From the IMG/VR virus record IMGVR_UViG_3300034071_001673: a stretch of DNA of 20,000 nucleotides; one strand, 5' to 3'. This stretch comes from an uncultured virus (IMG/VR IMGVR_UViG_3300034071_001673) (Duplodnaviria; Heunggongvirae; Uroviricota; Caudoviricetes). How positions within the stretch are numbered: the stretch's first letter is position 1; every line of letters begins with the position of its first letter. Shown piece by piece: positions 2,526 through 20,000 of the stretch. The translations under genes were made by a program, and so were the position numbers. The notes under the pieces are model-generated. The model was not told the origin of the DNA and ran no database searches. It saw only the letters and a program-made list of their open reading frames with translations.

Positions 2526-3106
2526 GTTTCCTTTGTCAATTGCTTATACTTGTCAACGTTCACCGCAAGAAAAGCACCATACTTGCGCACCTTTCTTGAC
2601 ACTTTGGGATAGATGATATCATCTGAAATCTTCTTGTCCCAAATTTGTATAAAGTTGAAGATGTTATTAAGAATCACAAGAGTCTCAATCGTTACATCTT
2701 TTTGGAGGAATGCGACTAACAATTTTGGAAATTGTCCATCTTCAACTTTAAATAAATTGTTAAACTCTTTTGGATCTGGACAAATCTTCTGCAGATCTTC
2801 CAAATATACTTTGCTCATGGAATCGGTGGTTCGTTTCCAATACCGATAAGTTTCTTCAGCCTGGTCTTCAAGCAATGACTTGGTCCAGTTATCATCACTG
2901 TGTACAAAATTAGCAACCAGAAATGGAACCATCTCATCGTCGCGATACTTGCGCGCAAGGCGGTGGAATAGAAACTTGTCACGGCGTTTTTGAAATGCAT
3001 CTACTGATACTCGAGTTTTGCCATCATATTGAAAGAAGTTATAACTCTCTGAAGTGAAATGCAACTTGATGGCTTGATAGATGCAATACAAATCGTATCC
3101 ATTCAT
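2498..3106 (-). CDS. 59: T4 gp59-like helicase loader
   Basis: Y.AIKLHFT..SYNFFQYDGK, F.KRRDKFLF..LARKY and IETLVIL motifs; conserved 33-59-32 gene order. Confidence 0.93.
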   Translation of the reverse strand: MNGYDLYCIYQAIKLHFTSESYNFFQYDGKTRVSVDAFQKRRDKFLFHRLARKYRDDEMVPFLVANFVHSDDNWTKSLLEDQAEETYRYWKRTTDSMSKVYLEDLQKICPDPKEFNNLFKVEDGQFPKLLVAFLQKDVTIETLVILNNIFNFIQIWDKKISDDIIYPKVSRKVRKYGAFLAVNVDKYKQLTKETLLADENTI

Positions 3107-3324
3107 AGAGGCAATCGACTTCCTCGCGGCAAGAATCTCAACTCCATTGCTTCACCTTCAATGATACTCTTTAGAGAATCATTGATCAAACTTGCAGCAA
3201 CTTCAATCTCAAGATTGTTACGCTCGCAGTATGAAGTGATTGCATCCATGTGATCAATCTTTTCTTGAATCGCCAAATTCATGATCATCATAGAAAAGTT
3301 ATTTTTTTCTTCGCGACTTGCCAT
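3103..3324 (-). CDS. 33: T4 gp33-like late promoter transcription co-activator
   Basis: MDAITSYCERNNLEIE...LINDSLKSIIEGEAMELRFLPRGSRLPL. Start placed at the ATG just after the guaC stop. Confidence 0.88.
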   Translation of the reverse strand: MASREEKNNFSMMIMNLAIQEKIDHMDAITSYCERNNLEIEVAASLINDSLKSIIEGEAMELRFLPRGSRLPL

Positions 3325-4993: not shown

Positions 4994-5020
4994 GTTAGTT
5001 GCCTCCATTATTGCAGTGGA

Positions 5021-5051
5021 AAGAAAAGGTTGGTGGTTCGCACCACCAACC
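5021..5051 (-). terminator. Hairpin/terminator at the 3' end of the tmRNA coding piece
   Basis: GGTTGGTGG-TGCGAA-CCACCAACC followed by TTTTCTTT on the - strand. Confidence 0.65.
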
Positions 5052-5332
5052 CAGACCTTTCTGTTACCAAGCGGTCAACTCTGGTAATCTCATACTGCAA
5101 TTAAGCAGCGAGAGCCATTTCGAAGTAATCGTCGTTTGCGTTTACTTTGTTTGCGCTGATTAAGTCAGTCGCCTCACTGGTTGCTGTCAGGTTATTACTT
5201 GCCCTGTCGAAGCCAAATTCATCCCCATAAGATAGCCACCACGTACATTAATGCAGAGGTGATGGGCATTTGGTGGAGATGTCGGGGGTCGAACCCGAGT
5301 CCAGAACACCTTTAATTGTCAGTTTACAACCA
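5025..5332 (-). ncRNA. ssrA: Circularly permuted two-piece tmRNA
   Basis: The acceptor piece comes first (~5332-5271), ending in a T-arm TCGGG-TTCGACC-CCCGA then CATCTCC-ACCA. A 44-nt intervening segment (5270-5227) follows. The coding piece starts GGGGATGAATTTGGCTTCGAC at 5226. The acceptor stem has G3.U70. The tag frame 5139-5101 reads ANDDYFEMALAA*. Outer boundaries are approximate. Confidence 0.93.
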
Positions 5333-5491
5333 TTAATCAACTAGAAACTGTGGCTTTGTCTGTTCATTCAATGATTTCTGTTGCTCTTCAAGATACTTCT
5401 TGTATTGCTCAGATGTCATTGCATGCAAACCAATGCAATAGCCAGTCGGACTGCGTCCGCATGCGCATGGATATTGTTTCACTTCAGACAT
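5333..5491 (-). CDS. 52-aa CDGSH-like (putative Fe-S/metal-binding) mini-protein
   Basis: MSEVKQYPCACGRSPTGYCIGLHAMTSEQYKKYLEEQQKSLNEQTKPQFLVD*, with a C-x-C-G-R-S-x4-C-x-G-x-H ligand pattern and a GGGAG RBS. Absent from the ORF track. Confidence 0.75.
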   Translation of the reverse strand: MSEVKQYPCACGRSPTGYCIGLHAMTSEQYKKYLEEQQKSLNEQTKPQFLVD

Positions 5492-15034: not shown

Positions 15035-15131
15035 TGTTCCCCTTCTTAAAGATTCTGTCCCAATTTTCATCGAACTTTTTTCTCGGAACACTCAATGGGC
15101 GTGGCTTGCTTCCCTTTCCGCCAGTGCTCAT
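14979..15131 (-). CDS. 50-aa basic mini-protein
   Basis: MSTGGKGSKPRPLSVPRKKFDENWDRIFKKGNNAKTRSSRSSSSRSGSIG*. The ATG overlaps the HNH stop (ATGA), with GGAG upstream. Absent from the ORF track. Confidence 0.65.
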   Translation of the reverse strand: MSTGGKGSKPRPLSVPRKKFDENWDRIFKKGNNAKTRSSRSSSSRSGSIG

Positions 15132-15700
15132 ATCATATTTCTCCATACTCTACTATGTTTAGGAATGCTCGCTTTCAGAAATTCCATTTGATCAGCGAGA
15201 ACTTTACGATTCTTTAGTAAGATTCTCTCATGTACAGTTGGAGCATAAGGAACGTATAGAAGATGCATCTTTGCTTCTTCTGGCGTCTTCCATCCCTTTT
15301 TATGGTTACATGGACGACAAGCAGTGACGCAATTTGTCCACTGATTCGTGCCACCACGAGACTTTGGCTGAACGTGATCAATTGTCAATTGACTAGTGCT
15401 AAATTCATCTCCACAATAAGCACAGATGTGCCAATCGCGAGCATATAATGTCATACGATCGGCGAATACAGTTTGCTGATTATAGAATTTGTCGCCTAGT
15501 AATGGACCACTCACACCAATGATGCAAGAGATATCGATGCGCGACTGTTCACCATGCTGATTGTGACCACCGAGCATGGTTTTCATCTTTTCACCCAATT
15601 CCCAGAGAACTTTATTCTTGGCATAGTAACACGCTGCCATTTCAAAGTTCACCCAGTCTTTGGGCATTCCACCTTTGTCTACAACTAATACTAAACTCAT
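15128..15700 (-). CDS. HNH endonuclease
   Basis: RDWHICAYCG...TIDHVQPKSRGGTNQWTNCVTACRPCNHKKG. Confidence 0.93.
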   Translation of the reverse strand: MSLVLVVDKGGMPKDWVNFEMAACYYAKNKVLWELGEKMKTMLGGHNQHGEQSRIDISCIIGVSGPLLGDKFYNQQTVFADRMTLYARDWHICAYCGDEFSTSQLTIDHVQPKSRGGTNQWTNCVTACRPCNHKKGWKTPEEAKMHLLYVPYAPTVHERILLKNRKVLADQMEFLKASIPKHSRVWRNMI

Positions 15701-18240: not shown

Positions 18241-18474
18241 TTATTCTACAATTTCAATTTCGCTTTCTGTAACTACAGCAACTCTTGCACCACAAGGAAG
18301 AAGTAATTTCTCATTTCCTGAGTATACAACTTCACTTGGTCCGTGAATCTTCACACGATGACAATAAGTGTTCTTCCTGCCTTCCTTGATGGTAAGCACA
18401 GGATTATTCTCATTGTTCTTTTTATTTGATCTAATTATATGTTGATTGACATGAATATATTTTTTCATAATCAC
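18241..18474 (-). CDS. Conserved-looking phage hypothetical protein
   Basis: IHVNQHIIRSN...PVLTIK...NTYCH.V.I.GPS.VVY...L.CGARV, with a GGAG RBS. Confidence 0.7.
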   Translation of the reverse strand: MIMKKYIHVNQHIIRSNKKNNENNPVLTIKEGRKNTYCHRVKIHGPSEVVYSGNEKLLLPCGARVAVVTESEIEIVE

Positions 18475-18481
18475 TCCAAAC

Positions 18482-18556
18482 TGGTGCGCGATGAGAGGGT
18501 CGAACTCCCGACATTCGCCGTGTAAAGGCGCTACTCTACCACTGAGTTAATCGCGC
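18482..18556 (-). tRNA. tRNA-Val(TAC)
   Basis: CGCC-TTTACAC-GGCG, ACCA end. Confidence 0.93.
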
Positions 18557-18562
18557 ATAAAC

Positions 18563-18637
18563 TGGAGTTGCGGACTGGAATCGCACCAGCATAAAAGAGT
18601 TTTGCAGACTCTTGCATAACTTTTCTGCCACCGCAAC
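18563..18637 (-). tRNA. tRNA-Cys(GCA), non-canonical D/T loops
   Basis: AGAGT-CTGCAAA-ACTCT, U73 discriminator, T-loop TGCGATT, no GG in the D-loop. Confidence 0.88.
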
Positions 18638-18641
18638 AAAA

Positions 18642-18727
18642 TGGTGGGTGAAGTAGGATTCGAACCTACTCAGCCAATGGCAGCGGATTTACAGTCCGAC
18701 GCGACTCTCCAACTTCGCCGTTCACCC
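18642..18727 (-). tRNA. tRNA-Tyr(GTA)
   Basis: CGGA-CTGTAAA-TCCG, long variable arm, ACCA end. Confidence 0.93.
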
Positions 18728-18731
18728 AATA

Positions 18732-18805
18732 TGGCTGAGGAGCATGGATTCGAACCACGATAAGCAGGATCAAAACCTGCTGTCCTGCCGTTAGACGACT
18801 CCTCA
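18732..18805 (-). tRNA. tRNA-Gln(TTG)
   Basis: GCAGG-TTTTGAT-CCTGC, U1-A72, GCCA end. Confidence 0.93.
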
Positions 18806-18811
18806 ATAAAA

Positions 18812-19082
18812 AGTGCTGGATGAGACAACTGGGTTTGCTCGTTCTGGGCATCCGATGAAGGCGACACATTACTGCTCGCCACATCCAGCGATCCTAAATT
18901 AGTTGCTTCCTCTTTGCGGCGGTTTTTGTCATCCCACCACAAACACTTATGTGGTATCCGCATCCCGACCAAAGAGGATTCTCGCATTGCCAGCGCCAGT
19001 TCGGTTAGACTGGAACCACCCTACGGCTATCACACCGTTTCTCATCATCTGGGTAGACTATCCGCTGATTAGACGGAACGTT
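18812..19082 (-). ncRNA. Putative structured non-coding RNA(s) between tRNA-Ala and tRNA-Gln
   Basis: GC-rich 270-nt spacer without a credible ORF. Many nested helices: CTACCC/GGGTGG, ACGGT/GCCGT, CCAGT/ACTGG, TCCTCTTTG/CAAAGAGGA, ACCACA/TGTGGT, GCTGGATG/CATCCAGC, GGCGA/TCGCC. Confidence 0.6.
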
Positions 19083-19083
19083 T

Positions 19084-19158
19084 TGGTGGAGGATGAGAGA
19101 ATCGAACTCTCAACTCTGCGATGCAAACGCAGCGTGTTCCCATTAGCACTAATCCCCC
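19084..19158 (-). tRNA. tRNA-Ala(TGC)
   Basis: CTGCG-TTTGCAT-CGCAG, G3.U70, ACCA end. Confidence 0.95.
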
Positions 19159-19163
19159 AAAAA

Positions 19164-19316
19164 TGGCGTGGGCTACCATTTAAGGTTCGTTCTTATCTAT
19201 GCCCCCACGCAACATAGAATGCATTCCGTTCGCTCTCATATATCGTTGGTGCTATTCAAACGGAAAAGTCTTTGCACCGACGGATGACTCACAGTGAATT
19301 CCCTGCAAGCACCAAG
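19164..19316 (-). ncRNA. Putative double-pseudoknot RNA ending in CCA, between tRNA-Asn and tRNA-Ala
   Basis: Two H-type pseudoknots can be drawn by eye. The 3' end is ...CCCACGCCA followed by a T-run, like the neighbouring tRNAs. Confidence 0.55.
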
Positions 19317-19317
19317 A

Positions 19318-19392
19318 TGGCTGGCGAGGTTGGGATCGAACCAACGACCTAATGATTAACAGTCATTTGCACTGCCGCTGTGCTACTCGCCA
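19318..19392 (-). tRNA. tRNA-Asn(GTT)
   Basis: AATGA-CTGTTAA-TCATT, GCCA end. Confidence 0.95.
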
Positions 19393-19408
19393 AAACCGTT
19401 TCACAATT

Positions 19409-19482
19409 TGGTAGGACTGGAGGGTAACGCTCCCTCTTTTACGGATTAAAAGTCCGTTACATCACTTTAATGTTTCAGTCCC
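19409..19482 (-). tRNA. tRNA-Lys(TTT), non-canonical core
   Basis: ACGGA-CTTTTAA-TCCGT, acceptor GGGACTG/CAGTCCT-ACCA, T-loop AGCGTTA, A8/U14. Confidence 0.85.
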
Positions 19483-19503
19483 AAAAATCTCATAACAAAA
19501 ATT

Positions 19504-19578
19504 TGGTGAACCCAAGGGAATTCGAATCCCTATTCCAGCCGTGAAAGGGCTGTGTCCTGACCGTTAGACGATGGGTCC
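19504..19578 (-). tRNA. tRNA-Glu(TTC)
   Basis: CAGCC-CTTTCAC-GGCTG, ACCA end. Confidence 0.93.
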
Positions 19579-19579
19579 A

Positions 19580-19655
19580 TGGTGCCGCCGATAGGACTCG
19601 AACCTACAACCCCCTGATTACAAATCAGGTGCACTACCAGTTGTGCTACAGCGGC
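19580..19655 (-). tRNA. tRNA-Thr(TGT)
   Basis: CCTGA-TTTGTAA-TCAGG, ACCA end. Confidence 0.95.
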
Positions 19656-19714
19656 AATAATATTTTTAAACAGCAAGAGCAATCGCGAAGGACGCTCATC
19701 AACCTTATACATAT

Positions 19715-19774
19715 ATTCTAACGTACAAGGCTGCAAAAGACAACAACTAAAAACCTTTTAAAATCAACACCTTA
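19715..19774 (-). promoter_or_regulatory. tRNA-operon promoter with upstream IHF-consensus box
   Basis: TTGTCT-17 nt-TAGAAT (19743-19715). AATCAACACCTTA at 19762-19774. Confidence 0.72.
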
Positions 19775-19880
19775 AAAAGATCGCGGTTTTCGGTGCGGGA
19801 GGGGAAATTCATAGGCACCGTGGAACTCTTGTCCCACCTCAAGAAGATGAGGGCGTCGCGAATCACGCAGGAAAATTCTT
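19775..19880 (-). ncRNA. Putative ~105-nt small RNA, four-way junction with C-rich loop
   Basis: The closing stem TCGCG/CGCGA encloses three hairpins: CCTCA/TGAGG, TGGGAC/GTTCCA and CGGTGC/GCACCG. It ends in a T-run and has its own promoter upstream. Confidence 0.62.
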
Positions 19881-19885
19881 CAAAT

Positions 19886-19914
19886 AGTATATAGTACAAT
19901 ATCAAAAAAATCAA
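19886..19914 (-). promoter_or_regulatory. sigma70-type promoter for the putative sRNA
   Basis: TTGATT-17 nt-TATACT. Confidence 0.65.
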
Positions 19915-19923
19915 GGATGTTCT

Positions 19924-20000
19924 TTATAAAATCGAATCAAATTCCAAACTTGCCAAAGCACCAAGAGTGTGCACATCCAACCGATTAATGTTCCACGATT
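19924..20000 (-). CDS. 3' end of an unidentified CDS (partial)
   Basis: Open frame ...SWNINRLDVHTLGALASLEFDSIL* runs off the window edge. Confidence 0.4.
   Translation of the reverse strand, partial: SWNINRLDVHTLGALASLEFDSIL

Follow-up and report, generated by a model that had tools for sequence, protein, structure and literature searches.

The window analysed here is a 20,000-nt stretch of a 108-kb IMG/VR virus record whose completeness is rated 63%. Its protein families, among them a gp32-like single-strand-binding protein, a gp59-like helicase loader, PhoH and an exonuclease, place the phage in the T4-like type. A tRNA array occupies the minus strand from about 14.7 to 19.7 kb, with 15 tRNAs called by ARAGORN and 16 by Rfam (the extra Rfam call lies at 19412-19482). 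A promoter consensus scan returned four sites, against 2.2 expected. Within the array, between genes for tRNA-Asn and tRNA-Ala, lies a non-tRNA RNA gene (Table 1). It ends in GCCA (19167-19164), followed by TTTTT and then by tRNA-Ala from position 19158.

Table 1. Positions of the RNA gene, its parts and neighbouring features in the window, and of second modules in other loci
Feature	Position	Strand	Remarks
Whole RNA gene, about 154 nt	19164..19317	-	first base past tRNA-Asn CCA to CA past last helix
P1, 5' hairpin	19283..19313	-	GGUG...CAUC base, bulged U, 8-nt loop
Pseudoknot 1 stem 1, 5' strand CGTCGGTGC	19274..19282	-	
Pseudoknot 1 stem 1, 3' strand GCACCAACG	19244..19252	-	one C/A mismatch in the window
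Pseudoknot 1 stem 2, 5' strand TTCCGTTTG	19257..19265	-	in hairpin loop
Pseudoknot 1 stem 2, 3' strand CGAACGGAA	19224..19232	-	GAACGGAA invariant
Unpaired invariant AUGAG, pseudoknot 1 linker	19235..19239	-	columns A82-G86 of alignment A1
Pseudoknot 2 stem 1, 5' strand	19212..19218	-	includes CTATGT, 19217-19212
Pseudoknot 2 stem 1, 3' strand	19196..19202	-	includes GCATAG, 19202-19197
Pseudoknot 2 stem 2, 5' strand GCGTGGG	19204..19210	-	
Pseudoknot 2 stem 2, 3' strand CCCACGC	19166..19172	-	contains G and first C of GCCA
Pseudoknot 2 loop 3, conserved A-rich 5' part UAAGAACGA	19187..19195	-	T126, A128, A131 and A134 invariant in A1
P3, small hairpin within loop 3, ACC-UUAAAU-GGU	19175..19186	-	
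Upstream tRNA-Asn(GTT)	19318..19392	-	encoded CCA abuts RNA gene; ARAGORN, Rfam
Downstream tRNA-Ala(TGC)	19084..19158	-	5 T after RNA gene; ARAGORN, Rfam
Promoter-like sites upstream of tRNA array	19715..19743, 19886..19914	-	consensus scan only
Second pseudoknot-2-like module	L095 454-528		
Second pseudoknot-2-like module	L079 1654-1728		
Second pseudoknot-2-like module	L313 753-826		
Second pseudoknot-2-like module	L271 416-489		
Second pseudoknot-2-like module	L302 417-490		
Second pseudoknot-2-like module	L303 114-187		

The window has several other features. The extra Rfam call (minus strand, 43.7 bits), missed by ARAGORN, is a tRNA-like gene whose anticodon loop reads UUU (Lys) by eye and which has an odd T-loop, AGCGUUA instead of UUCGAAU; a comparably odd tRNA-Asn-like gene, with the T-loop AGCGUAA, is found in locus L008. 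An HNH endonuclease gene (15128-15700, minus strand; phrog_16726, E 8e-26) sits amid the tRNA genes, a placement like that of the homing endonucleases of the T4 tRNA region (segB). The phage also encodes a permuted, two-piece tmRNA of betaproteobacterial type at 5010-5385 on the minus strand, with the tag ANDDYFEMALAA (ARAGORN; Rfam 138 bits).

The 278-nt spacer between tRNA-Ala and tRNA-Gln (18806-19083, minus strand) is likewise kept in relatives, at 77-95% identity. Its consensus fold comprises several helices, with both-side changes at 7 of the 62 pairs predicted, and its sole Rfam match is weak (wcaG-like, 18.3 bits, E 0.8). The stretch probably represents at least one further non-tRNA RNA. 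A second spacer of about 115 nt, also conserved and starting TTGTTGCTTG.AAGCCCAGAGGC, occurs at 3057-3174 of locus L351 and recurs after tRNA-Ala in L248, L251 and L106.

Fold and covariation

The first-pass annotation of this DNA had described four pairings that build two tandem H-type pseudoknots, and all four are present on the minus strand. It had not described P1, which was found in the present analysis. The predicted fold is thus a 5' hairpin, P1, followed by pseudoknot 1 and pseudoknot 2. As had also been noted, there is no cloverleaf: ARAGORN and Rfam call no tRNA in 19164-19317, and the RNA has neither a T-loop nor an anticodon-like arm.

We find that these helices are maintained by compensatory change. 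Alignment A1, made with MAFFT and not fitted to the structure, comprises the window and 39 full-length homologues. Across it, 94.2% of the cells of the 42 pairs in five helices are standard pairs, compared with 35.5-43.5% when the partners are slid by 1-3 columns. Changes on both sides are seen in 18 of the 42 pairs (shuffled mean 9.8), and the covariation score is 0.220 (0.133 shuffled); none of 500 shuffles reaches either value. In alignment A3 (40 rows), which was fitted to the nested helices only, the paired share of cells is 95.7% overall, with both-side changes in 24 of the 42 pairs. The pairings therefore covary in homologues, far above the slid and shuffled controls, and the two tandem pseudoknots of the first-pass annotation hold.

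Helix by helix, P1 (13 pairs) is 92.6% paired in A3, with nine pairs changed on both sides; in L344, a more divergent member, it is a shortened but perfect 7-bp hairpin. Stem 1 of pseudoknot 1 (8 pairs) is 96.5% paired with four such changes, and stem 2 of pseudoknot 2 (7 pairs) is 92.5% paired with five. Stem 2 of pseudoknot 1 (8 pairs, 99.4% paired, one both-side change and six invariant pairs) and stem 1 of pseudoknot 2 (6 pairs, 100% paired, five both-side changes) lie outside the model to which A3 was fitted, and thus serve as independent tests.

The predicted stem 2 of pseudoknot 1 is the weakest helix and rests mostly on complementary invariant segments and one swap. Its covarying pair is UA in 36 rows and AU in three, and another pair departs from invariance by a single unpaired cell. 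Part of this invariance is ascertainment, since three of the search patterns fixed both strands. In L344, which was found around relatives of a neighbouring protein with no sequence pattern used, the 5-bp core of the helix alone pairs.

Thermodynamics alone would not single out this stretch. The nested minimum free energy (MFE) has an unremarkable z-score of -1.57, and 13 of 200 shuffles fold equally well. The helices found only in the nested MFE structure were rejected, with 77.8% paired, equal to the shuffled mean (77.8%), and so was a competing MFE hairpin, with 63% paired and no both-side changes. An all-against-all column scan for tertiary pairs gave mostly phylogenetic noise, from which we took only a seventh pair in stem 1 of pseudoknot 2 and a hint of P3.

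Pseudoknot 2 is predicted to be a compact knot of the H-type, in which an A-rich loop 3 holds a small hairpin, P3. The seventh stem 1 pair is also kept (UG 27, CG 5, UA 8), which gives the pseudoknot 7-bp stems and 1-nt crossing loops. In five sequences of the L095 type, stem 2 by eye pairs perfectly or nearly so once the register is moved by 1 nt (UAGUAAC with GUUACUA is one case); this shift explains most of the unpaired cells of the helix. A model, R2, failed to re-register these five sequences in this stem. Among the folds of 20 distinct loop-3 sequences, 17 show the base of P3 at the same position; the exceptions are L002 and L331, whose minimum-energy structure is a different one, and L003, which has the inner stem only. 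P3 takes either a 3-bp or an extended form, and the extended form has AGUA opposite GAA, which we take to be a sarcin-ricin/loop-E signature. Seven members (L003, L004, L112, L268, L296, L319 and L344) have a loop 3 that is 16 nt longer and carries the extended hairpin, whose stem and base helix covary (AUC/GAU versus AUG/CAU).

Distribution and genomic setting

Homologues were collected from viral and metagenomic DNA. A 19-mer of pseudoknot 2 gave 11 viral loci, two more specific patterns gave 22 and 17, and a pattern scan of metagenomes gave 46 loci; two looser patterns had at least 120 matches each, mostly by chance, and were screened by nhmmer. An nhmmer profile picked 118 of 337 loci, corresponding to 45 distinct sequences. 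Six truncated unique sequences, L101, L300, L315, L215, L302 and L303, were left out of A1. A single pattern match in the genome_contigs set fell in coding-like, G+C-rich MAG DNA that nhmmer did not match, and was rejected as chance. The pairings are kept in 40 full-length homologues, all distinct, that come from contigs of lake phages. Public runs that hold DNA of the RNA region are labelled as lake, freshwater and drinking-water metagenomes, and 14 DNA runs, one of them perhaps the source sample, hold at least 76% of the sampled words.

Catalogued sequences and families gave no counterpart. By blastn, 79 records of deposited phage genomes match the window; the best 40 of these 79 match only in the flanking tRNA or tRNA-like parts and none in the RNA, and one of the 40 is annotated there as a hypothetical protein. 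Rfam at gathering score returned only tRNAs and the tmRNA in the window, with nothing over the RNA gene. With E up to 10, 18700-19500 gave tRNAs and weak unrelated matches only, and six diverse homologues searched with E up to 1 gave no family match and no tRNA. A literature search, mostly outside subscription journals and older T4 papers, found no description of the double-pseudoknot RNA. We conclude that it is a real structured RNA family, previously uncatalogued.

The RNA is closely tied to the tRNA array. An upstream tRNA is called in 37 of 41 distinct sequences (Asn in 30, Gln in 7), and its CCA is followed by the RNA with a gap of 0 nt in 35 of these 37; of the remaining four, two are cut by the locus end, one follows an odd tRNA and one is L328. 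Downstream, tRNA-Ala is present in 33 of 41. In L106 and L330, about 93 extra bases with several hairpins separate the RNA from tRNA-Ala, which lies at +255/+256 instead of +162.

Model R1 scores 169.3 bits on the window, over 19152-19320. The window's genome has one copy of the RNA, as does a 173-kb record whose completeness is rated 100%. In a related array (L351, 2822-2976), tRNA-Asn-CCA-TTTTT-tRNA-Ala is read with the RNA cassette exactly missing and no model match, which makes the RNA accessory. With R3, a model of pseudoknot 2 only, the window shows a single module; L079, L095, L313, L271 and L302 have a second one in tandem, and L303 has the second module only. Weak extra R3 matches in L351 and L345 lie inside a coding region and were rejected as chance. 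The first and second modules are about 50 nt apart, the second being downstream, and the subgroup with this arrangement follows tRNA-Gln. Together, the absence from L351 and the module variants indicate that the RNA behaves as an accessory, modular cassette in a tRNA slot. Among the genes tested, none was found to co-occur with it.

Transcription and proposed maturation

In six metatranscriptome runs, 20-32% of the words sampled from 18700-19700 are present. One RNA-library contig covers 19133-19231, from tRNA-Ala into the 3' half of the RNA, and continues into a relative's pseudoknot 1, and others run, by eye, from the 3' ends of tRNA-Asn or tRNA-Gln into variant P1 sequences. The uncovered bins at 19244-19277 reflect divergence from the relatives' variants, not absence. 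These contigs, assembled from four runs, are open to DNA carry-over and are silent on ends, strand and level; the forms that they show are joined rather than processed. They fit co-transcription with the tRNAs. Of the first-pass reading as a processed stable RNA, a structured non-tRNA gene in a tRNA transcript stands, and processing from that transcript is most likely.

We give about even chances to the view that the RNA is a discrete stable species released from the tRNA precursor and acting in trans, probably by binding a protein. The enzymes in the following scheme are modelled on E. coli and T4. The RNA would be co-transcribed with the neighbouring tRNAs, and the RNase P cut at the 5' end of the downstream tRNA would free its 3' side. 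An endonuclease, probably RNase E, may cut the single-stranded, conserved NCUU just past the upstream CCA and so free the 5' side. Exonucleases would then trim to the terminal helices, and with helices capping both ends the RNA would accumulate, as is the case for T4 RNA C and RNA D. The invariant unpaired bases (AUGAG, the loop-3 adenines and UAG) would be presented to a partner, which is most likely a protein of the host or of the phage. A trans-acting RNA that binds or sequesters such a partner would help the phage in some hosts.

More tentatively, the RNA may be a phage counter-measure, a pseudoknotted decoy that is made in bulk through tRNA processing and sequesters or inhibits a host RNA-binding enzyme; this is a minority possibility. 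Candidate targets are a tRNA-targeting defence nuclease and an RNA-decay or processing factor. Such a role would explain the accessory status of the RNA, the swapping of modules and its presence in only some near-identical arrays.

Alternative readings and comparable RNAs

The RNA might instead be a cis element of the tRNA precursor, that is, a processing guide, a block to 3' exonucleases, or a terminator or insulator, that governs how the neighbouring tRNAs mature or how stable they are. We consider this unlikely, though it accounts for the direct joining to the tRNA CCA in 35 of 37 sequences and for the T-run that follows the G+C-rich last helix. The unit also ends the array in L095 and L079, where promoter-like sequence comes next (by eye), and in L301 the T-run is followed by ATAAAATG, with the next tRNA 484 nt from the start of the RNA. 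However, the tRNA-Asn/tRNA-Ala junction of L351 does without the RNA, so that these two tRNAs do not need it, and ordinary tRNAs of the window's array also have T-rich spacers after them. A canonical terminator scan of 18400-20000 found no sites, and the last helix encloses a 35-nt loop, where an intrinsic terminator has a hairpin loop of 3-8 nt before its T-run. In addition, two pseudoknots and many invariant unpaired bases would exceed the needs of a block.

It is improbable that the RNA mimics a tRNA acceptor arm, with pseudoknot 2 stacked as a helix of some 14 bp that leaves a 3' overhang, and so engages enzymes that depend on CCA or serves as a decoy for defence nucleases that target tRNAs. 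The RNA does occupy a tRNA slot, and its 3' strand would be the end of a quasi-continuous 7+7-bp helix, with a 1-nt crossing loop as its 5' side. Plant RNA viruses carry tandem H-type pseudoknots in the tRNA-like structures and upstream pseudoknot domains at their 3' ends (TYMV and TMV type), and there the 3' strand closes a coaxial acceptor-like helix of the kind that pseudoknot 2 might form. The first-pass annotation had likened the CCA end to those of the flanking tRNA genes; as a defining tRNA-like feature it is not supported by the homologues. After the last helix, 13 of 41 distinct sequences read CA: the dinucleotide is CT in 21 rows of A3, CA in 12, TA in 6 and CG in 1, and the thirteenth CA is that of L344. 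Two bases of the GCCA in the window, the G and the first C, are moreover base-paired, covarying positions, and the helix overhang is 2 nt only and not NCCA. The CCA resemblance is thus not a feature of the family, and a tRNA mimic is a weak reading. Unlike the plant viral structures, the RNA has no conserved CCA, T-loop or anticodon-like arm and is encoded by a DNA phage, in a tRNA operon; nor does it have a tRNA score or a conserved identity element like G3:U70.

We give little credence to a new self-cleaving ribozyme that would cut at its own 5' edge and release the upstream tRNA in the fashion of theta ribozymes. The constant 0-nt spacing from the tRNA, the double-pseudoknot architecture and the invariant junction bases would suit it. 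There is also a precedent: the HDV-like theta ribozymes are small pseudoknotted RNAs directly downstream of phage tRNAs (PMC10879173). However, the RNA lacks P3/L3 of those ribozymes, where only 1-2 nt separate the 5' strand of stem 2 from the 3' strand of stem 1, as well as the context of the J4/2 catalytic cytosine. Its first four bases are unpaired and not part of a P1, and no Rfam ribozyme matches 18700-19500 of the window (E up to 10) or six homologues (E up to 1). The upstream tRNAs encode CCA, which only 4.5% of theta-associated tRNAs do in that paper. Self-cleavage would leave a 2',3'-cyclic phosphate on A76 that should block charging. These last two points together disfavour a ribozyme.

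Phages can escape host defence by encoding antitoxin look-alikes. It is nonetheless very improbable that the RNA imitates a pseudoknotted type III antitoxin RNA and neutralises an abortive-infection ribonuclease of the host. Type III antitoxins are described as RNA pseudoknots in phage defence, the RNA is accessory, and its pseudoknot 2 module is doubled in some phages. Against this, a search for tandem direct repeats found none, pseudoknots 1 and 2 are unrelated in sequence, and the doubled modules differ in helix sequence. No Rfam antitoxin family matches 18700-19500 of the window or the six homologues, and only spurious frames overlap the region, where a toxin gene would be expected beside such an antitoxin.

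A negligible chance is left for a non-functional spacer with fortuitous complementarity or a tiny protein-coding gene, in spite of the modest MFE z-score (-1.57) and a 19-codon frame that starts at an invariant ATG, since all helices covary far above controls and 20 of the 40 sequences interrupt the frame with a stop at its third or seventh codon.

The nearest known counterparts of the RNA are RNA C and RNA D of T4, which at about 120-140 nt are likewise encoded within the tRNA cluster of a T4-type phage without being tRNAs. RNA D, the first of the two, starts 1 nt after tRNA-Arg, a layout that matches the butt-joined one seen here, and RNA C follows it. The role of both is described as unknown (PMC3014915 and PMC9697503). 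T4 RNA C has a T-arm-like GGTTCGAATCC hairpin, whereas the RNA described here has none and is built of pseudoknots. R1 run unfiltered over positions 69500-74500 of AF158101 gave no meaningful match: the best (7.7 bits, E 0.2) falls in the tRNA-Ile gene, on the opposite strand, and over rnaC there is only a 0.8-bit match (E 9.7).

Other RNAs share single traits with this family. GOLLD and ROOL are conserved, structured RNAs of unknown function that are often found near tRNAs, with which they are possibly co-transcribed, and in phages (PMC5737381); they are multi-domain RNAs of 500-800 nt, unlike the RNA of about 150 nt reported here, which has no Rfam match. Like tmRNA, the RNA has consecutive H-type pseudoknots and would be a stable RNA matured by tRNA-processing enzymes, but it has no tRNA-like domain or tag frame, and the tmRNA of this phage is a separate gene (5010-5385).

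Knowledge of stable RNAs other than tRNAs in the tRNA clusters of phages dates from T4 RNA C and RNA D, and the family described here is a second, unrelated example. Its covariation-backed fold, its presence/absence and duplication variants and its spread across lake metagenomes make the question of the role of such RNAs testable by comparison and simple biochemistry. The family is a clean candidate for a new Rfam family, and pseudoknot 2, with its embedded hairpin, is a candidate for structural study of a compact pseudoknot.
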